Shown: positions 1 to 49,890 of the stretch, piece after piece | How positions within the stretch are numbered: position 1 is the stretch's first letter | Layout: each line of letters begins with the position of its first letter | IMG/VR virus record: IMGVR_UViG_2974731583_000001 | Span: 1 to 64,000 of that record | DNA from: a virus | Taxonomy: Duplodnaviria > Caudoviricetes | Length of the DNA stretch: 64,000 nucleotides | Direction: 5' to 3' (one strand) | Made by a program: the position numbers and the translations under genes | The notes under the pieces: model-generated | What the model was told of the DNA's origin: nothing | The model's database searches: none | Seen by the model: only the letters and a program-made list of their open reading frames with translations

Positions 1-1
1 G

Positions 2-75
2 TGGACCAGCTAGGGCTTGAACCTAGGACCTCCAGATTATGAGTCTGTTGCTCTAACCAACTGAGCTACAAGTCC
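2..75 (-). tRNA. tRNA with CAU anticodon, probably tRNA-Ile2 (lysidine type) rather than Met
   Basis: Minus strand GGACTTGTAGCTCAGTTGGTTAGAGC...GACTCATAATC...GGTTCAAGCC...GGTCCA folds as a cloverleaf. The GACTCATAATC anticodon arm resembles bacterial Ile2 tRNAs. Confidence 0.9.
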
Positions 76-188: not shown

Positions 189-257
189 TGCGTCTTATGA
201 GGCTCAAACTCATATCTACACACAAGTGTGTTGTGTTATCAGTTACACTAAAGACGC
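189..257 (-). ncRNA. tRNA-like element with a 4-nt anticodon loop (non-decoding tRNA or processing signal)
   Basis: Acceptor GCGTCTT/AAGACGC+A, D stem GTGT/ACAC, T stem ATGAG/CTCAT. The anticodon arm is ACACA-CTTG-TGTGT, a 4-nt loop instead of 7. Confidence 0.75.
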
Positions 258-520
258 TGGCACTTAGGTAGCCTTCACCGACTTTACGCTGCCTCCTGGA
301 GGCCCGTATAGTCTACAACGTTAATGTTGCCAGTTATATATAGTCAATACGCTTAATGTATTTACTTCCACCAACAATCAAACCCAAATCGCGCCCGTTT
401 TCGGTTCGGTTGTTTTTACATCTCGCGGTAGAACCGAAAATGTCATGGATGGTTCCTCGTGCACTGCGAACGTGGACGTGGAGGGATTCGAACCCTCGTC
501 TTGCTGGTATAACTCATACG
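258..520 (-). ncRNA. ssrA: Circularly permuted (two-piece) tmRNA: acceptor piece ~520-473, intervening segment 472-397, coding piece 396-~258
   Basis: The 3' module GACGAGGGTTCGAATCCCTCCACGTCCA precedes the 5' module GGGCGCGATTTGGGTTTGA. Together they form an acceptor stem with G3.U70 and A73. Helix TTGTTGGT/ACCAGCAA joins the two pieces. The tag frame 331-284 follows ATATAACT and reads GNINVVDYTGLQEAA-TAA. Confidence 0.88.
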
Positions 521-573
521 CGTAATTGAATTCTTGTAGGTATAATGTTGATCGGACAAAATACCTTAAATAA

Positions 574-6852: not shown

Positions 6853-6901
6853 TCACAGACACAGGTGTTATCCTGTGTTTCGTCCAGTCTCATCAGTGTG
6901 A
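6853..6901 (-). ncRNA. Hammerhead ribozyme, type I, minimal stem II
   Basis: TCACA-CTGATGA-GACTGGAC-GAAA-CACAGG(ATAACA)CCTGTG-TC-TGTGA, with GUC at 6860-6858. Confidence 0.85.
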
Positions 6902-7542
6902 ATTTTAACGTCTCCTGGATGACGTCCCTTAAAAAGAGAAACCCTGTAGTCTAGATGCAAGTGATGAGCTCACCTACAGGGCTTTTTCTGCATTCAACTG
7001 TTATCAACAGTCTCATTTTTAGTTATGTTTGGATCATAACTCCTATATTTCCAAAACACCATGGGCCTGACGGTGAATATAGGTTCGTTACAGATGCAGA
7101 TCTATAACTACCACTGCCTCCTTTACTCTGTGGTCTGCGGTTAGACTTTTTATTCACTTATAATTGCTTTACGTAATTGATAAGTAAATTTATTACACAT
7201 GTTGTTTGATTACAACATTGTGCCGGTTCTATCCTTTCCTTTAGAAGTCTAACTTAACTAGATACTTTTGAACCGTATATTTGTAGTCAATAGCTATCCG
7301 CCGCATTTTATATGTGGTGTTGGAACCGCCATTAGCTACAAAAATTTCTATTTAACATAACGACGCTATTTTACTATGTTGCTATAGTCTGCCCCAGCCA
7401 GTCGCGCGTCGGCGTTAGCCGACCGCGTCTTGGCGATAGTTTGAAGATAGTTTGAAGATAGGCTGAAGCGTTTATCTCGCATATATCCTGCCCCTGCATG
7501 TGGAACCTCGGAAGCGTTTATCTCGCATTCTTAAAAAACAAA

Positions 7543-12605: not shown

Positions 12606-12678
12606 TCCCCCGTGGCGTAACGATAGCGCGAAGAGCTCTAACCTCTTGTCAGTCTCGGTTTGAATCCGGGCGGGGGCA
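12606..12678 (+). tRNA. Amber suppressor tRNA (anticodon CUA), probably charged with Gln
   Basis: Acceptor TCCCCCG/CGGGGGC+A with an unpaired 1:72. Anticodon arm AAGAG-CTCTAAC-CTCTT places CTA at 12638-12640. T arm CTCGG-TTTGAAT-CCGGG. Confidence 0.92.
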
Positions 12679-12713
12679 CTATTTTCATAATACATTCATA
12701 ATATAAATTAAAC

Positions 12714-15986: not shown

Positions 15987-16174
15987 TTTACGTACAAAGC
16001 AAACCAGTCTTGGCCATATATGCTGGAGATTATGTAATAACCAGAGTGTATGCAAAAGACCAGTTGTTTTGGCCAAGCACATTAGAGATATTTTCTTGTT
16101 ATTCTAACGGATATTGGATGGACGAATACGGTTGGACAGATGAAACAATGTGGGCAGACAATATCAAAAAATAA
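15983..16174 (+). CDS. Small structural-module protein
   Basis: 63 aa with an ATGA overlap, between fibre-like genes. Confidence 0.7.
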   Translation: MIYVQSKPVLAIYAGDYVITRVYAKDQLFWPSTLEIFSCYSNGYWMDEYGWTDETMWADNIKK

Positions 16175-16179
16175 TAAAC

Positions 16180-19100
16180 ATGGAATTATACGATAAAAAA
16201 ATAAGCGAGTTTGTAGATTGGGTGACAGGAGAAGACACTTCTGATAAAGCCGTTGATAAACAACTTGGTGCCTTTTCTACAAACGGAATTCCTTCATCAG
16301 GAAAAGCTATAAGGGAATTATTACAAAGGAAATTAAAAACGCCGTTTGTTGTATACGAAGATAAATCTGCTGGATTGTACAGACTGTTTAGTAGTGAAGA
16401 ATCAAAGTCAAAGTGGCTTGTATTGATGGATTAGTCTAATAAAGAATACAATCCAGATAAAGCTTCAAAATACGAACTGTTCAACTTCGAGCGTCCTAGT
16501 GACACTGCACTTGTTATTGGTAATATTACAAGTGACGCACGTTATATAATTAACGGAGATGCTAATTCAGATGATACAAAACTACAGTTCAGTGTAACTC
16601 TTAAGCGTGAAAAAGCAGGTGGTGTAGAAATAGACGTTGACGGATTTACTGTAACATATACTATCAAAGATGCATCTGGTGTAGAAACCGTAATATCAGA
16701 AGAGTTTAATGCATCTGATTGTTCTACTGAAGGTAACGAAAATATTATCACAAGAGACATGTATCGTTATTTGAAAGAAGGTACAAACCAGATTACTCTT
16801 GCAGTGAAGGCTCGTAATACAGCAGCCAGTAACAAGATGAACATACCGTTCTATTTAGTAAACTTTGAACTTTCTAGTGCATTTGCTTTTGCAGAAGGTA
16901 AAGATCCAAACAAAGCAATCTCTGTTCCATTTAGAGTAAAGCGAAGTGTTGCTAAAGGTTTGACACTTACTGTAGAGGCTACAATAGATGGTAATCCGGC
17001 ATACAAAGTAGATGGAGTATCAAAGGCAGAACACGTAACAAGCTCTACAGAATTAGATTTTACTGGTACGCTAGATATAGCAAACACATATGCAGCAAAC
17101 GTAACAAGTCAAACTCATATAAAACACTTGTTGAAGTTGCAAGCCACTATGGTTGGTAACAATTAGAAAACGTTTGTGAGCAATGCAATATTCTTTGAGT
17201 TTGAGGTAGCATCAAGTACGATCGGTATTGTAAACAAATTTGTAAACATTAAATATTCTGTAGCGCCAAATAAGATAGAATTGTAGAACTCAGGGTTAGT
17301 ATTAAGAGGTACACAATACGAACCATTCTCACTTGACTGGGGATATTATACAGACCAGACTACAGAACGTTCTATACCAGTAACATGGGCAATCAGAAAG
17401 CCGCTCGCCAATGGAGGATATACATACGATACGTTGTCTATAGTAATTGGTAATAAAGGCTCTTAGAGTGAAACATTACGATTCATACCATCTTACCCGA
17501 TTACTGCAGAAGATAAAAGCTGTCTTGTTGCTAGATATAATGGAGTAGATATTGATTCTTACAATATTATTATAGACCCAAGTACATTGAATGTAGTTGA
17601 AACAAGTGACTACAACTTAAAGCTTAGTGCTTACGGTAAATCTAATAACTCCAGCGACAAAGCCAACTGGGTAGATATTGCAAACAACAAACGCGCCACG
17701 TTTAGCGAAGGAGTTGTGTTTGATAGCAATAATGGTTGGAAAGATAATAGTCTTGTGTTGTGTGGAGAAGATGCATATGCTACTATAAACTATTGTCCGT
17801 TCCCAACAGGATACAATCTTGCAGGAAAAGGAAAGACTTTGGAAATAGAGTTTAAGTCAGAAAAAGTATATGACAACTCAGACATCATTATTAGAATTGG
17901 CGGAGCAAACGGTGCTCACATCGATATTACGCCAAACTCTGCTGCATTGTATGTTGGAACAGAGCGTGTAGTATATACCAATTATAAAGCAAATGAGAAA
18001 ATAAAACTTGCGTTTATATTTAATGTGAGTGGTCTTAATTTGCCAGAAGACGGAATGGTATATATCGTGAACAACGGTATTTTAGAACGTGCCGCATTAA
18101 TTAAAAATGCAAACAGTTGTATTGACAACAACGGAAATATAAAACTCGGAGGATCTAAGAGTGGTGTTCGTGTATACAGCATGCGAGCTTACGACAAAGC
18201 AATCAGTTATAATCAAGAGTTAAATAACTTTATTTACGATAGCGAAAATAAAGCGATCTTGTTAAGTAACAATGATATTTTAGTAGACGGCAAGATTTCA
18301 TATGAACGTTGTAAAAACAAGATTGATACTATTCTTATAGAAGGAGATTTGTCTAAGATTCTAGACAAAGGTACTGATAAACTTGGGTCAGAAAGTACTG
18401 CAGACTTTGAGCGTATTTGTATTAGCGATGCTACAAAATCCTTTAAAGTTAAAAACGGAAAGATTAGAAAGCACGGACAATCTACACTTAACTATCCTAT
18501 TACGTCATACAAAATATGGACAAATAAATCAAATAGTGCAGATATTAGTCCAGTATTGACTTTATCAGACAACCAAAAGGCTTTGGGGTTAAACAAGAAC
18601 CGTTATATAATGAAGACTGGAGCGATCCCAGCAAACAAGTTTGTACTACAAGCCAACTACGCGGATTCATCTGGTGTACACAATGGTGGTATAGAACGTC
18701 TTATTCAAGATTGTTGGTATAATGCAGAAATAGACGGACAGTTTAGATTAAGAACAGCGCCACAGTTGTTTACAAGTAATAAAACAATTGCTCATAACGA
18801 CGAAAACATAAATGAAACCGGCTGGGTAGAAGGACAAGGCAAAGACTTTAATGGTAATATAGGAACGTGGAGTACATTCTCAAAAGGCAAAGACTTTCCA
18901 TATACAATACGTACAGCACCGGATTCATTCCCTTGCGCAGTATTCTATAAAAATACAGCAAACCCAGCAGAAGCAGATACATATACATATCTTGGTCAGT
19001 TTGTATTTATGGACGATAAAAAGTCTGATTTCCTCTACGGTGAACGAAGCATATATGCTTTCGGAAACTATGACGATCCATTTGTAATGAAAACAGAGAA

Positions 19101-22100
19101 CACAAAAAATGGACCAAACGGAAAACAAGATACTAAAGAAAATCGCGTGTGGGATAATTCTAATGTTCTAAGAATAGAGGTTGTATTGCTTAATAATGAA
19201 CTTACTTCGTTCATGGACTATAATGTTCCAGCAACAGGAGTTGTTGAAGAAGACGGTTCTGTGTCTCAAGCAGATGGCAATAAGGTACCTTGTGATACTA
19301 TAAAATACGATGAAAAAGGTAATCCTGATAAGTTCTATTGGGAAGATTATTTTGAACTTATTTATCCAGATCCAGATGACGTTGAAGAAGATCCTGGTAT
19401 GACTAAGTTTAGCGAAGGTTCTAAGTTTAGAAAGAAAACACAGCCGTTTTTGGACTTCTTAAAATGGATTACTGATATTGCTAAATTAAACTCTGTTGGT
19501 AATAAAATAGGGGATGGATATGTTACGCAAGCCGCGTTAGATGAGTTTAAGAGAACCGCACACGAACACCTTGATTTATATAAGGTAGCTGCATATTATA
19601 TATTCTGTATGCGTCTTGGTATGGTCGACTCTATTGAGCGTAACAACCAGTTTAAAACATATGACGGACAACACTGGCATTGTGAACCTTGGGACATAGA
19701 TATCGCTATTGGTAATAAGAACACCGGAGGTAATGCATTCGATCCCCCAATGACACGTGATACCCGTTTACCAGGAGACAGTACTACATGGGCATTCTCT
19801 GGTAGAAGTGCTACGACATCTAACGTACTATGGGACTGCTTAGAAGCGTGGGATTATTGGTCTAACACACTTGTTCCGAAGGTAGCTCAAGCTTTATACG
19901 AAGCAGGATTCTCATATGACAACATTACAAAGATGTTTGACCAACAGTATGCAGAGAAGTGGTCAGAGTTAATGTATAATGAATCTGGTTACTTTAAATA
20001 TGTTAAGTCTGGAGGTAAAGACTGGCTTGAGTGGTTACAGGGTGCTCGTACATCACATCGCCACTGGTGGGTATCTTCATCTATGAACTATTATGATGCA
20101 AAGTGGTCATGTGGTAGTTTTAATGCACACCGCGTATACTTAGGTGTTGATAAAATTAAACATCCTGCTGGAACAGATCTTGTCACCATTAAACCTTCTG
20201 CAGATACCTTCTTCAAGTTTACAAGAGGAGACGGTACCGTATCACTTGGTATAAAAGAAGCGTCTAGAGAAAAACCAGCAGTATTTGATGTATCACAAGA
20301 AACGTTCTCTGTAAAAGACCCAACACACATATATGGAGCAACATTTATTGAAGAGCTTGACGTAAGTTGCTTTGCGGATAAAATATCAGCATTAGATGTT
20401 ACAGCAGCATATGATGAAACGTTGGGAGCACCAATCAAAGTATTAGATGTTGGTACTAAGTTTATTGAAGAATCTGAAACAGTACGTAAAGGTACAGTAT
20501 CTGGCACACAATTACGTCTTACTGATGTAAACGCCAATACTGGAAATGCAGCGTTAGAGAACCTTAAAGAACTTAATGTTCGTGGACAGTATGCAATGCT
20601 TACGGCAGATGCTATACTTAGTGCTTCAGATAGAAAGAACGTATCTATATTGAAAGCAATGGGTACTGGTATTACAGCGTTTGAAAGTGCAGCATCAGGT
20701 AATAAATTCGACTTACTTGAGCTTCCTGGTATTACTACCACCAATAAGACAAATAAAGCAATGAATAGCTTTAAGGCTACTAATACAAGCTGGACTAATC
20801 TACAATTTTGGGATGCAAATATAAACTTTGGACAGTCCGAAGATGCTACCAATAGTGCAACGTTTACATTATCTACTGTGCCAAGTACAATATCTACAGT
20901 AGAGTTCTATGGAAGTACTGCACAGAATGATTGTTCTAAGCAGTTTGTCTTGGATTGGATAAGCTCAATAGAAGCGACATTACCTGCAGAGCATACAGAA
21001 CAAGATCTATATAACGCTTTATCAAGTAAACAATTTATAGCTGAGAATATAAATTGGTCTGGCCAAATATTCTATAACGATCTTGCCAGAATTGCACATA
21101 TGAACTATGGAAACAACCAGGCAGGAGATAACAATAGAAGCTATTTGCGTGGTTACGTATTGTTAGCAGATCCAACGCCATTATCAGCCGCACAGCTTGC
21201 AAACCTAAGAAACTGGTTTGGAGATTCTGTATTTGATAAATCTGCAATAACCAGCGGACTTGTAGTTGACCAAAATACTAACTACGTACAGATAATGGTA
21301 GGTGGTGTAGAAGTTGCAGACAACGGTGACCTTATATTAAATGAACCAAACGCTGTTCCAAATGCAACGGGTGTTGCTACATTGGTAGCTACCAAGTTTA
21401 TCCTTGGAGACGATACTACAGAGTACGAGTGGAGTTTAGAGTCTAATGCCCCATATAATAATAACTTTGTAGAATTAAAGACCGATTCTGAAGATGGCGT
21501 TGTACGTCTTATTGCAAAACAAGGTACTTTTGGAGATTATTTTGTCAATGTTAAAGCGCAGTACACAACACCAGCTGGAAAGCTTATGTCCAATACAGTT
21601 CGAATTAATATTCATGGTGTAACATACCCAGAGTCATTCTCTATGAACATGGCAGGAAATGCTACTTATATTAGACAGTTTGTTGCATCAGAAGATGTAC
21701 TTGCTTCTGTATTCGGTGCAGATAATATTAAATATAACAACGAACTTATTCCTGCGTATGTGATTACTACTAAAACACCAGCAGAATTCTATATTGAGCC
21801 AAGCAGTACCGATTATACGGCAACTATAAACAAAATAGAGTATAGCTATTACAACTATAGCGACAAGACTGTTTCTAGTGGATTTTTAACTAGAGAAGAA
21901 CTTGGCGCAGGAGATAGTCAAATCAATACGATAGGTCCTTCTGGTGATGATCCGTTGGCATATACAAAAGACGCTTCCCACGGAGGAATGAATCTACAGG
22001 CTATTACTATTACACCAAATCCTACTACATATAGATTTATCGCTAGAACTTCTATTGGAGGTAAAGATTTAATATTCAATTATGTAAACCTTATTGTATG

Positions 22101-22716
22101 GGATGATGCAACACCCATCTTGTCAAAGAATGCCGCTAATCAGTTATTTAATGCTATAAGTAATAAGTACGCCACAGACTTTAATTTGGAATCAGCTTAC
22201 TTTGATTTCTACAAAACGCACCTGATCTCATTGGCTGGCGAATTAAGTTTTGTTGGATATGAAGACATGAGTAGCCTTGGTACGAACAAAGGAGATAGTA
22301 TATTTAAGTATACACCAAACTTAACTTCTGTTATACTTGATGGATGTATAATGAACTTTATGCACGACGATGGTGTAAGTGTTGGAGAAGCTCTTGACTT
22401 TTCGGTAATGACTAAACTGAACACACTTTCTATGAATGGTTGTATAAATACAGTGGGAACATTATCTATTACAAACACAAACATTTCTAATATAGACTTA
22501 AGAGGTACTAATATAGGAATAGATTTACCAGAACGTAGTAAAATAGCTAATCTACAACTCGGAAGTCCTGTTGCTATAAAATTAAATAATCCACTTAAAC
22601 TTGATACAGTTACAATAGAAAGTTCTGAAAACATTGATGAGTTAAGTCTTACACAAGTAGACATTACAAGCAATCATGGATTTAACTTATTTGATACATT
22701 AATAACAACGGTATGA
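16180..22716 (+). CDS. Giant (2178 aa) virion/fibre protein with LamG-like, CotH-kinase-like and LRR-like regions
   Basis: ORF-track pieces 16150, 16759 and 17587 share one frame, joined by TAGs at 16432, 17164, 17284 and 17464. CotH-like segments include LQANYADSS and MVDSIERNN...WDIDIAIG. Confidence 0.75.
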
Positions 22717-44257: not shown

Positions 44258-45155
44258 ATCCGTAATAGCAAAGATTATGGCAGATATGGATTCAACGGAG
44301 GTGCGGTAGCGTGTAACTGACATTAAAGAGTGGATTTTTGAAGCTGTTGAACGTATTGGTGCTCCTATGCAGTATGCGACAAAAGAGTCTGGTGTAGATT
44401 CTCCAATACTAAAAATACAAGATTATCAAGTACCACTACCTGCAGATTTACATTCGCTTGAAGGCGTGGCATATTCATCAAACGAAAACGGCCCGTGGAG
44501 ACCAATGGACAAGTCTACTTCAATGATACATCAACACAAAGACATAAAGAAGAGACCTCCATTCCCACATAATCCACAGATACCTCATGATGAGAACAAT
44601 AAGGCTATAGACGTACATGTAGTCGATGTACACGAACATCAACCAGAAGCAAAGAAAGCGATTACGTCATAGTCACAATTTTACACTCAGAACTTCATGA
44701 AATACGTAGATAAAGTAAACCCATATGAAGTTCCAGAGTATTTTATAAAACCAGGCTGGATAGTAACAAATGTGAATAAAGGTTACATCAAGCTTATATA
44801 CAAAACAATTCTCACAGACGAAAGAGGTTATCCTTTAATTCCGGACTTAGTATCGTACCAAGAAGCATTATACTGGTATGTACTAATGAAATTAAGTTTT
44901 GCAAAGTGGATGAAAGGAACTCTTGGAGGAAAAGGAGTAAATGCTGGTCAAAATATGTATACGTTTATACATCAGCAATGGAACTTTTACCGCAATTAGG
45001 CTTATGCAGAAGCAATGATGCCTACTACAGACGATATGCGTAACATAAAGAACCAGTGGAATAAATTAATACCCGATTGGGAAGAAGATAAACATTTCTT
45101 CTCTACTATCGGAAAAGAAGAAATAACCTATAACGACTATTACCATGGATATTAA
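44232..45155 (+). CDS. Tail tubular/ring protein (307 aa, 3 TAG)
   Basis: Pieces joined at TAGs 44307, 44670 and 44997; DERGYPLIPD and WNFYRN*AYAEAMMP segments. Confidence 0.75.
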
Positions 45156-48100
45156 ATCAAATACACAATAGATAAATACATTCGCTGGCGGTATGAATAC
45201 TGACTTGTCAGACATGCTTTTAAAGTCGTCTCAGTATAGATTGGCTAAAAACGTACGTTATGTCACAAATGACGAGGAGAACGGCGGAGAATTACGAATG
45301 GTCGATGGTTGTGTGTTTGGTGGAGATGTATCTGATGGTTTCATTATAGATGATGAATATAAAAACCGGTTAAAAGTACTTTATACAGGGGCTATTAGAA
45401 ACTACGCAATAGCTATAGTTAAAATAGAAGTTAATGACGGAGAAAGAATTAATGTTATAGACCCACACAACACAAGTAAAGAACTTACAAACTCTCATTG
45501 GTGGGTATTGGTTTCAAAAAATCCGTTTGAAAACGTAGACAACGACACCTATATACAAATGGATAAATTTAAGGTTGCGTTTGGCCCTTGTGGAGCAACT
45601 CTTGGAAATAAATTAAGTGTTGTATGTAGATACGAGAACTATAATAACGTTCACGTTTATATTGCGGACGGAATAAATCCAGTACTATCTATAAACATAG
45701 GACATGCGTTCGACGATGGATTTGTGCCAAGCAGTGATTATAACGCAATAACATCGAACCCGCAAGTAACATTTAAACGTATACAATTTGTTGATCTTGT
45801 AGACGGTGCTTTACCAGCAGGAATGGTTGAATACAGTTATCAGTACTTTAATAAGTACGGAAACGAATCTAAGATTTCAGTACCAACAAAGCTGATACCA
45901 ATTGTAAAAGGATCTGGTAATTATGCAGAAGGATATAGATCTGGAGAAACATCTAATCGTGGTGTAGAACTCCGGTTTCCAGGAAAACACGAATCGTTTG
46001 ATTCTATGCGTATATATCGTATACAGTACATAGAAAACGGGCAAGCTCCTACGGTTGATGTTATATACGAATCAAATGTCAACACAACAGATTTCTGGAC
46101 ATATATAGATGGTGGACAACCACCTCTGTATAATGTAACTTTAGAAGAGTATAACGCCAACAGCGGAATACACATTATACCAAAAGTAATAGAATCCAAA
46201 GAAGATCGCTTATTTGCAGCAAATATTAAGAAAGACTTAAACTCATTCGTTTCTCAAGATATTTTAAACTGGGATGCTAGAGCATATAGATTTCCAAAAG
46301 ACAGTACAACAACCACACTGTATACTTATGGTACAACAAGTAATCCTATTACTGTAGACAACACGTATTAGGTGCCAAAGAAACACGACTGTTGGCAATC
46401 TACAAACAACATAAATAAAGACCTTACTGAAGACGACCCGCAATATCAATATAACAGTAGTGTTGTTGGAGGAAGCGGAAAGAATATATCATGGTCTTTT
46501 AATGACATTAAAACATCTGCTGACGCAAATATTAGTGATAGTGATTATTATAGTATTCCTGGCACAAATGGAAAACCATTATCTTTACAGGATGATAGAA
46601 GTTTGTATGTGTTAAATTACACAAAATTTGACGATGGAAATCATCTTATGGGAACTGATATTAAAGCTTCCTTAGCCAACTCAAAAACATCATACACATA
46701 TCCATCGTTAAAAGCTGATGAATTATATAGATATGGTATTGTACTTTATGATAAATACGGAAACGCAAGCCCCGTAAAATGGATTGCCGATATAAGAACT
46801 CCAATAGAGTTACCAATATATACGAACGAATTTTCTGATTTAACAACGTCACAGCGTGGATTATTTTTTGATGTTAATGAACAATCTTTAATAAATGTCG
46901 GTGTAACGTCTTACGAGATAGTTAGATGTATAAGATCAGAAAAAGACATAAAGAATTTGTCTATTGGAGTATTGTCTAGACCAATAAAAAAACTTACTAA
47001 CAAATATAATTTGCGCAATTCATAGGCAACAGCATCTTATCCATATACACCAAGCGGATGGCTTACTACAGCAGATTATTGGGCAGGATCTAATAGACAA
47101 TTTGACTTTAAAGATTATACTGATGAATATGAAGGGCATTGGTGGGCAGAATCAAACTGTGCAATACGTCACGTTGATCATGACGATAATACAACGCATA
47201 CTACATATAGCGAACCTAACAAATCTATATTTTAGTTTGTATCCCCAGAGGTTTGTTATTCACAAGATTCTTTTAAGCAACTTTTACAAGGACAATCTAT
47301 AAAAATTAAGCCGCTTACATATTTATATGGATATAAGTAGAGAAAAAACGATTAGGATTTTGACCATAATTCTTCATTTTTAATATTTTATCCAGCTGAA
47401 AACAGTACGTCTAGTGGAGTATTTTTAGACTAGGTGTTATATCCAGGAAACGATTACACCAGAATGTACGTAGAAAATACAGCTGTTGTATACAGTGAAT
47501 TTCCTGGTGAGTATATTGACTTGTCTATAAATTCCGCAGAAAATTTAGATTAGCGAGATATTATAACAAATGCATCATCTGTAGCAACGCTGTTTTATTA
47601 TGGAAATAAGAAATTATCAGACTGTATTACTGGTGAAGGAGATAAAAATTATGTTGTAAACGGAAAAACGTATAAAATGTGCTATACTCCGTCTGGATAT
47701 GAAAACAACGGAGTTGGTTTTAATCAGCTTGATACAGACAAAAGATATTCGTATATAAAGTTATATATAGCATCTGACAATATTATTGTTTCTCAATTTA
47801 CTAAAGGTAATAGAAAAATAATTGAAAATAAATCAGTATCTTCTATAGGTTCTTCTGAAGTTGATGATTTTGCGTTTGCAGACACGCTCTAGTGGGATGA
47901 TTTTGCGGAGATAAAAAAATCCGGAGAAACATATTCTTTAAAATATACAAATACATCTACTGCTATAGGAAACAATTCGTTTGTAAACTGGGTGTCTAAT
48001 GGAGCATACAATGTACCAGCTACTGGAGATTGGTCAACGCTTAAACTAGACCAGGCAAATTTACAAGACGACATGCTTCTGCAAACAAATGTTGTCATGG

Positions 48101-49890
48101 GCCCAGGTGGTGCTTGTATGTTATTAAACATAAAAGATGCAGATGTTGCATTATGGAATTCTGCTGCTGTTCCAAACAATTAGTTTAAGGATACTACAAG
48201 TTATATGTATTCTTGTAGTGTTCTTAATGGAGCTATAGTCGGTGGTGGTAGAAAAATATATGTTGTACCAGAAAGCAGACTTGGTACATTTTTGTGTAGT
48301 ATACAACATACAATAACACCGTATAGCGGATTCTCATACGAAAACAGAAAACAGGATATATATTATAGCTTTGGAGATTTATTTGTTCCTACAGAAGTTG
48401 GAACTTCACAAACACACCTTAATCTCCCAGAAGGATGGTATAGACGTCCTGTATTCAACGGCGACTGTTACAGACAAGCAATGGAATATGTATCACAGCA
48501 CAAATATTATTTTGCACCAAATAAGTATACAAAGAATGCTTGTGTTGTATATTCGTTCCCAACAGAATCGTCTATAAACCTTGCATTTACTGATGGATTT
48601 GAATTCCATAAAAACAACGCTCCAACAGAGATACAAGAAAAACCAGCAGATGTATACAAGAAGTTTGTTTAGACAAAGTCTTTATATAGATACAACCCAG
48701 TATATAGCGCACACAGTACAGCTCATCCAAAAGCAATGCAGCTTGATAGAAGCGATTACGATATAGAATTTGATACAAGATGTTTCTACTCTAACGTAAA
48801 GAGTAATAACGAAAATACTGATAATTGGTTGCATTTTATGCCAGCAAACTTTATCGACGTTGATAGTAGAAAAGGCCCAATAACGAACCTAAGAACATTT
48901 AATAACCAGCTGTTCTTTTGGCAAACAGACGGTACCGGAATATTATCCGTAAACGAGAGAGCTGCTGTTTCCGATCAATCTGGACTTCCATTGATGCTTG
49001 GTACAGGCGGAGTATTAGAGAGATTTGATTACCTTAATACTGCTTGTGGCATGAAAGAAAACGAATTTGCAGATGCTCAATCTGATTCTGTACTATATTG
49101 GTGGGATCATACAAGAAAAGAACTTTGTGCACATGCTGCAGGAAATGGTCTTGGCGTAAATTCTCTATCAAAAGAAAAAGGAGTACAGAATTTGATAAAC
49201 GTTAAGGCTAAACAAAACCTATTGGCATCAGATCCAACTCTGATATACGATAAGAAGTATAATGAGCTTATTGCCTATATAGCAACAACAGCAGAAGATG
49301 ATACTACTAAAGATGGCACACCATCTGAAAAAATTACAGCTACAGACGACGGTTCTATGATATATAGTGAACTTACTGGACAGTTTGTTTCTTTAGTAGA
49401 TGTATATCCAAAACACGCAATATAGTTTGGAGATAAAATATATATGATGTCTGACAAGGATGCAAACGACAAATACTTGTGGTTATGGAACTATCAAGAG
49501 TGCAAGAAAAACCCTGATGTTTCGTATGTAAGAGGATTTTCTAATATGCTTTATCCGTACGTAAAGTACGTCATAAACGACAATAATACATTCCCAAAAG
49601 TATTTGATAATATTACATTCGGCGGAAGATTTTATGGTGGTGACAAAGAAGATATTACTCCGTTACGTTTCAAGTTTAAGACACCGCTAAAACAACAAGG
49701 TGATGCTGATGGAACTTCTGTAGAGAATAGAGAATACGACTTTAGAATGGCTATTCCTCGTCATAAAAATTCGCAGTATGGAGATAGATTAAGAGGAAAA
49801 ACAATGCAGTGTGAGATGTGGTCTTTAAAATCTGACGTAGACTTTTCATTGCAATATATAACAACTAAATATAGAATATCTTGGGTATGA
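45145..49890 (+). CDS. Tail muzzle/stabilisation protein (1581 aa, 12 TAG)
   Basis: NTFAGGMNTD start, YRYGIVLYDKYG and DRLRGK end. Seven ORF-track fragments share one frame interrupted only by TAG. Confidence 0.82.

Follow-up and report, generated by a model that had tools for sequence, protein, structure and literature searches.

Two-piece tmRNAs are on record from the Alphaproteobacteria, from a betaproteobacterial lineage and from cyanobacteria (Keiler 2000; Sharkady and Williams 2004, both as cited in PMC9004378). Their genes have a common order, in which the 3' tRNA-like half is followed by an intervening segment, the 5' half and the tag. The acceptor stem and helix 2 join the two pieces, and a G3:U70 pair is present. 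Among phages, the marine myophage Melnitz carries a two-piece tmRNA of alphaproteobacterial type together with a glutamine riboswitch (PMC9004378); this gene was copied from a bacterial form that was already permuted and does not represent a separate permutation. By contrast with all of these, the tmRNA gene of Bacteroidota (RF00023) is colinear, measures about 390 nt, contains four pseudoknots, encodes CCA wherever the call reaches the 3' end and specifies a tag ending in -YALAA or -FALAA.

The gene analyzed here lies in a window of 64,000 nucleotides from a crAss-like phage, for which a complete record of 98,667 bp with terminal repeats exists. The tmRNA region of the window is 99.4% identical to that of the RefSeq crAssphage cr273_1 (Buhlduvirus, Oafivirinae, Suoliviridae), where a tmRNA feature is annotated at NC_055904.1 35492-35861; tmRNA is likewise annotated in the Oafivirinae RefSeq genomes cr130_1, cr131_1, cr7_1 and cr124_1. 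The window copy and that of cr273_1 have identical tags, differ by three base changes, one of which creates a C6:A67 mismatch in the acceptor stem, and represent the same gene. In Table S1 of Buchholz et al. 2022 (PMC9004378), the tmRNA topology of cr272_1 and cr273_1 is given as "Permuted," as is that of cr131_1, cr130_1, cr125_1, cr124_1, cr115_1, cr114_1, cr10_1 and cr50_1. The text of that paper discusses marine phages only and assigns 50 of 53 two-piece phage tmRNAs to marine or aquatic samples, whereas in its Table S1 at least ten crAss-like phages of the human gut are entered as permuted. The RefSeq and Table S1 entries consist of a feature line or a table row, without structure, origin or function. 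Yutin et al. 2021 do not mention tmRNA, and a literature search returned no paper analyzing a crAss-like tmRNA apart from the PMC9004378 table. The gene and its permuted layout are therefore already on public record and are not new, contrary to an earlier note on this DNA, which knew of no prior description in crAss-like phages. As far as searched, the structure, origin and role of the crAss-like tmRNA are unpublished and, given that gene and layout are public, what is of value here is analysis and experiment, not the discovery as such.

ARAGORN, which the earlier note had named as a check, independently called a permuted tmRNA at 193-562 on the minus strand, with the same tag as had been read from the sequence. 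A full-length match (531-284, minus strand; 40.0 bits, E 2.9e-6) was also obtained to RF04321 (tmRNA_permuted), Rfam's merged permuted-tmRNA model. The gathering cut-off of this model is 47 bits; cr273_1 falls short of it as well (46.2 bits), and 11 of 13 relatives pass with scores of 49.5-63.4 bits. Thus, the family qualifies for RF04321 while the window copy is just short, losing about 6 bits relative to cr273_1 through its C:A mismatch. With the lineage-specific permuted models (RF01849, RF01850 and RF01851) the outcome was different: the betaproteobacterial model gave 31 bits against a cut-off of 84, for the tRNA-like domain only, and there was no alphaproteobacterial or cyanobacterial lineage match among the Rfam matches listed for the window. 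The Rfam comparison suggested in the earlier note accordingly yielded the full-length permuted match, but at a score below the cut-off and with the lineage models failing.

The coordinates of the gene and its surroundings are collected in Table 1. On the minus strand the 3' module precedes the 5' module, the two are separated by a segment with a hairpin of its own, an equivalent of helix 2 joins the pieces, and a resume context followed by GGC opens a short tag frame with its own stop codon, all as the earlier note had read them. That note had also proposed that the two ends pair and carry the G3:U70 determinant of alanine identity. The determinant is present (G394:U476), but pair 6:67 is a C:A mismatch in the window copy, which thus has 6 of 7 acceptor pairs. 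The acceptor stem and P2a-c together amount to 24 bp joining both pieces. Of the CCA end, only C74 (C472) is encoded after the discriminator, so the remaining two nucleotides must be added once the trailer has been trimmed. RNAalifold and the minimum-energy fold of the precursor both recovered the T arm, the tag hairpins and P2a-c, but the acceptor stem did not form in the minimum-energy fold.

Table 1. Features of the permuted tmRNA gene and neighboring RNA elements in the 64,000-nucleotide window
Feature	Position	Strand	Basis or remark
tmRNA acceptor-piece core	473..524	-	ARAGORN, Rfam RF04321, RF01850 tRNA-like-domain part, covariation counts
3' strands of P2 in acceptor piece	P2c 524-520; P2b 519-516; P2a 508-501	-	
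T arm; 3' acceptor strand; discriminator	497-481; 480-474; A473	-	
Intervening segment between tmRNA halves, 76 nt	472-397	-	Direct sequence reading
10-bp hairpin inside intervening segment	440-431 with 407-398	-	Ends 1 nt before G1
tmRNA coding piece	258..396	-	ARAGORN tag, tested helices, RNAalifold and minimum-energy fold
5' acceptor strand, followed by D-loop analogue	396-390	-	G3 = 394
5' strands of P2 in coding piece	P2a 377-370; P2b 361-358; P2c 352-348	-	
A/U-rich leader between P2c and resume codon, 16 nt	347-332	-	
Tag frame, 15 codons	331-287; resume codon GGC 331-329; stop TAA 286-284	-	ARAGORN
Hairpin at end of tag	about 307-286	-	
Small H-type pseudoknot	S1 279-276 with 270-267; S2 273-271 with 261-259	-	After the stop
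tRNA-like element	189..257	-	Rfam tRNA model, 53.6 bits
Hairpin upstream of acceptor piece	539..565	-	9-bp stem, 9-nt loop with GATC
tRNA-Met downstream of tmRNA	1..75	-	Same strand as tmRNA
Suppressor tRNA, anticodon CUA	12606-12679	+	

The RNA is reduced in comparison with its bacterial counterparts. Pseudoknot 1 is absent, as the 16 unpaired nt between P2c and the resume codon leave too little room for it, and the resume codon stands at position 66 from G1, compared with about 94-99 in Bacteroidota tmRNAs. After the stop codon there is a single compact pseudoknot, both stems of which covary, and the tRNA-like element, with an "anticodon loop" of 4 nt, starts 1 nt past it. The alphaproteobacterial, betaproteobacterial and cyanobacterial two-piece tmRNAs share with the phage RNA the joining helices and G3:U70, but the phage gene differs from them in its Bacteroidota-type signatures, in the lack of pseudoknot 1, in its single small pseudoknot, in the tRNA-like marker at its 3' end and in being phage-encoded; this last property, and the permuted layout, it shares with the Melnitz tmRNA.

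Upstream of the acceptor piece, the hairpin at 565-539 forms an independent fold (z -3.5); compensatory changes were observed at 5 of its 9 pairs and 97-100% of the cells were paired across 29 sequences. It may be a transcription signal; alternatively, it may form the 5' portion of the acceptor piece, standing at the place of a PK4 remnant. A pairing of its loop with the post-tag stretch was considered and dropped, as the changes in L017 and L089, read by eye, do not compensate. Inspection by eye likewise found no pairing between the 3' end of the coding piece and the 5' leader of the acceptor piece of the kind seen in alphaproteobacteria. A scan of positions 1-1100 for sigma-70 promoters and terminators, whose consensus differs from that of Bacteroides and phage promoters, gave nothing on the minus strand. 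Directly upstream of the tmRNA region, at 574-669 on the minus strand, an inverted repeat, long and imperfect, encloses an inner hairpin, and relatives have a comparable inner hairpin upstream. On the other side of the gene, in cr273_1, a tRNA-Leu comes after the tRNA that corresponds to the tRNA-Met of the window.

The earlier note had called for homologues and covariation, and both were found. Pattern scans of IMG/VR gave 77 loci with the 3' tRNA-like motif and 43 with the coding-piece motif, two of the latter being chance matches within coding sequence, and the tmRNA gene is present in about 40 viral contigs. When 39 module sets were compared, including the window and two RefSeq copies, the acceptor stem was paired at 7 of 7 positions in every set but that of the window (6/7). 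The T stem was paired in all 39, with seven different T-stem sequences, and helix 2 occurred in many variants. The intervening segment, by contrast, varies from 16 to 176 nt among relatives and its sequence is unconserved.

The structure drawn on the window was then tested against a MAFFT alignment of 29 distinct sequences. Standard pairs occupied 95.4% of cells, compared with 85.6% in shuffles, and two-sided changes were observed at 28 of 52 pairs against 12.4 in shuffles; none of 500 shuffles reached 28. In a slid control, in which the 3' partners were moved by 1-3 columns, the count of two-sided changes was at most 11. Covarying pairs were distributed over P2a (8/8), the T stem (4/5), the acceptor stem (3/7) and P2c (3/5), P2b was invariant, and G3:U70, on whose presence in homologues the earlier note had laid weight, was kept in 29 of 29 sequences. 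The outer tag-end hairpin drawn on the window misaligns with the relatives owing to an insertion; read by eye, the relatives have a hairpin of their own at the end of the tag. A recurring architecture with compensatory changes of this extent is far beyond chance.

Several relatives show peculiarities of their own. L005 (3695-4227, minus strand) has an odd T loop and was missed by ARAGORN; its intervening segment, at 176 nt, appears to hold a small reading frame. L090 (7490-7911, plus strand) has a non-canonical T loop and was also missed by ARAGORN, yet scores above the Rfam permuted-tmRNA cut-off. In L086 (5215-5587, plus strand) the halves are 16 nt apart, and no other copy seen encodes the CCA end in full. 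Upstream of 8330 in L093, the 5' half of the acceptor module is swapped for unrelated sequence, which reflects either a broken gene or a chimeric assembly.

The tag of the window, (A)GNINVVDYTGLQEAA followed by a stop, belongs to a set of about ten related tags reported by ARAGORN across the family, so that the tag frame, too, recurs in homologues as the earlier note had required of a working gene. Gly or Asp comes first, followed by Asn; the core reads Val/Ile-Val/Ile-Asp-Tyr-Thr, and the end is -VA or -IA, with tags in the clade of the window ending in -EAA. In the 29-sequence alignment, read by eye, the codons of the Asn, Asp, Tyr and Thr residues of the core have undergone synonymous changes only, and the stop is TAA or TGA, never TAG. 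The tag frame is thus under coding constraint. The greater length of the window tag stems from the insertion that extends the tag-end hairpin, and L005 has the same insertion. Given that host tags of Bacteroidota end in -ALAA, the end of the phage tag is unlike the host degron, and a role as degradation signal is not assured.

Taken together, the ARAGORN call, the RF04321 match and the recurrence with compensatory changes bear out the central claim of the earlier note, that of a phage-encoded, circularly permuted tmRNA with its own tag. We hold with good confidence that the locus is a genuine circularly permuted tmRNA gene (ssrA) of a Suoliviridae/Oafivirinae crAss-like phage, which probably arose from a one-piece tmRNA of Bacteroidota and has since been reduced to about 200 nt. 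Permuted tmRNAs are over-called by ARAGORN, and the Rfam score of the window is under the gathering cut-off, so that a chance tRNA-like match might be suspected; but the strong covariation in every helix, the relatives that exceed the Rfam cut-off and the conserved tag speak against it, and with covariation and the relatives' scores this reading is refuted, its probability being practically nil. It might also be supposed that the family is functional while the window copy is impaired or decaying through its C6:A67 mismatch. The window is alone among the 39 module sets in having 6 of 7 acceptor pairs, the mismatch accounts for the loss of score relative to cr273_1, and the acceptor stem is missing from the minimum-energy fold. 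However, the tag and the remaining helices are intact and match those of cr273_1 exactly, a single C:A at 6:67 leaves the G3:U70 identity element untouched, and the mismatch could be an assembly or read error; impairment of this copy is considered highly unlikely.

Only a little more credence can be given to the proposal that the RNA is a decoy, whose tRNA-like domain would soak up host SmpB, EF-Tu or AlaRS and so block trans-translation, the tag being vestigial. This would resemble the frame-less tmRNA of mycobacteriophage DS6A, which is reported to inhibit endogenous tmRNA in E. coli (PMC11915505), and would agree with a phage that has no SmpB, with the absence of pseudoknot 1 and with a tag C terminus unlike that of the host. 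A decoy would need neither a tag frame nor post-tag structures, and yet the frame, the resume context and the stop are conserved throughout the family, the core codons change only synonymously, and the post-tag pseudoknot and hairpin covary. Their conservation counts against a decoy, which we therefore consider highly unlikely, and a tag-encoding permuted tmRNA is preferred.

The origin of this permuted tmRNA was approached through the 5' end of the main phage clade, which carries a motif of GGG, six bases and a 12-base D-loop/helix-2 motif. Scanning one genome per species in 185,579 species gave at least 120 loci with this motif. Among the matches listed, nearly all of 80 motif loci were from Bacteroidota, and ARAGORN called 59 of these 80 as one-piece tmRNA starting at the motif and none as permuted, which agrees with the statement of the earlier note that Bacteroidota tmRNAs are one-piece. 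Tags at the motif loci were of the host type, starting Gly-Glu/Asn-Asn and ending in -ALAA or -AFAA. Two contigs, L123 and L127, labelled as belonging to an Alphaproteobacteria MAG and a Bifidobacterium breve MAG, contain a one-piece tmRNA of Bacteroidota type whose tag is of the host type; mis-binning of these contigs is probable.

An nhmmer profile was built from 54 Bacteroidota tmRNAs. Its last 40 positions matched phage acceptor modules with E values down to 8e-7, and positions 367-395 matched 500-472 of the window (E 9e-4). Its first 21 positions matched weakly (E 0.7) downstream of the acceptor module, which is the permuted order. tRNA-like domains are alike across all bacteria. Several features are shared with the Bacteroidota one-piece tmRNA. 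One is the motif that runs from the 5' end across the D-loop analogue into the beginning of helix 2; others are the motif preceding the T arm and the inner segment of helix 2. The resume context is A/U-rich in both and leads into GGC, and the tag opens with Gly-x-Asn. The phage gene differs in being permuted, in its length of about 200 mature nt and in the core and end of its tag. The Bacteroidota-type signatures, together with the failure of the lineage Rfam models, favor a separate permutation. On these sequence comparisons, the phage gene is likely to be a separate permutation of a Bacteroidota-type tmRNA in which pseudoknot 1 and most of the pseudoknot ring were lost, in line with the independent permutation that the earlier note had suggested from the sequence.

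The elements flanking the coding piece appear to bear on its maturation. In relatives, only an acceptor stem and T arm remain of the tRNA-like element, in some cases with one further hairpin, and its T stem covaries; in L005, a true tRNA-Met takes its place, 5 nt past the pseudoknot. The element is likely to be an RNase P signal that sets the 3' end of the coding piece. The hairpin directly before G1 also covaries in relatives at the corresponding position, and both elements may serve as processing signals. The precursor is presumably cut into two RNAs, since charging requires a free 3' acceptor end, and the intervening segment would be removed in the process.

A mechanism can be proposed on this basis. 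A single precursor would be transcribed leftward, host RNase P would cleave it at two sites, ahead of G1 (396) and ahead of the tRNA-like element (257), the trailer past A473 would be trimmed, and the host CCA-adding enzyme would finish the end. The resulting acceptor piece of about 52-93 nt and coding piece of 139 nt would be held by the 24 bp of shared helices and charged by host AlaRS via G3:U70. Host SmpB and EF-Tu would then bring the tmRNA to stalled ribosomes with an empty A site, translation would resume at GGC (331), and a tag of 15 residues would be added, ending at TAA. The phage would gain in that ribosomes are kept free during infection. What the sequences themselves show is the anatomy, its conservation and covariation, and the coding constraint, whereas processing, charging, tagging and phage benefit are inferred.

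SmpB (PF01668) is absent from the complete 98,667-bp phage genome, and host SmpB would therefore have to serve; SmpB, AlaRS, EF-Tu, RNase P and the CCA-adding enzyme of the host would all be needed. The genome context further includes the suppressor tRNA of Table 1. In-frame TAG codons occur in plus-strand genes, with 12 within a frame of 1,587 codons, for example, and 4-12 in long plus-strand frames such as 45127-49890 and 16144-22716. The CUA tRNA and the in-frame codons indicate that TAG is read as sense in probable late genes. A combined Rfam tRNA search and ARAGORN analysis found a CUA-anticodon tRNA in 4 of 5 other tmRNA-bearing genomes, and the fifth has an odd tRNA; a BLAST comparison of the window suppressor tRNA with the same five genomes gave no match. 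Rescue by tmRNA at unassigned UAG codons is among the findings in recoded E. coli (PMC6207430). Given that amber suppression should drive ribosomes past UAG toward the ends of mRNAs, a link with tmRNA is reasonable, and non-stop complexes should become more numerous through the amber suppressor of the phage and through mRNA decay. The role that suggests itself is ribosome rescue in a TAG-recoding phage by way of host SmpB. Rescue at recoded UAG and replacement of a cleaved host tmRNA, the roles put forward in the earlier note, may be considered, the observation that bears on them being the co-occurrence with an amber suppressor tRNA. Shared ancestry alone may, however, account for the association of tmRNA with TAG recoding.

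A more far-reaching account is doubtful as a whole. According to it, the Oafivirinae tmRNA would be a fourth independent two-piece origin and a minimal one, without pseudoknot 1 and with the 3' end of its coding piece set by an RNase P signal from a degenerate tRNA; it would work with the amber suppressor, clear ribosomes that have run past host UAG stops, and add a phage-specific tag (core Val-Asp-Tyr-Thr) whose reader, if any, would be an adaptor or protease other than the one that recognizes the host tag. If the RNA works by the mechanism set out above, it would be among the smallest tag-encoding tmRNAs and would provide a natural test of what trans-translation needs, having no pseudoknot 1 and one small pseudoknot in place of four. 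Two-piece tmRNA would then have arisen separately once more, in a virus of a phylum with one-piece tmRNA, and abundant code-switching gut phages would seem to manage host translation in part by controlling ribosome rescue.

Elsewhere in the window, a RAGATH-1 hammerhead ribozyme was detected at 6853-6925 on the minus strand, with 73 bits and over the Rfam cut-off. It is kept in at least two related phages, at 3605-3681 of L003 and 211-292 of L010.
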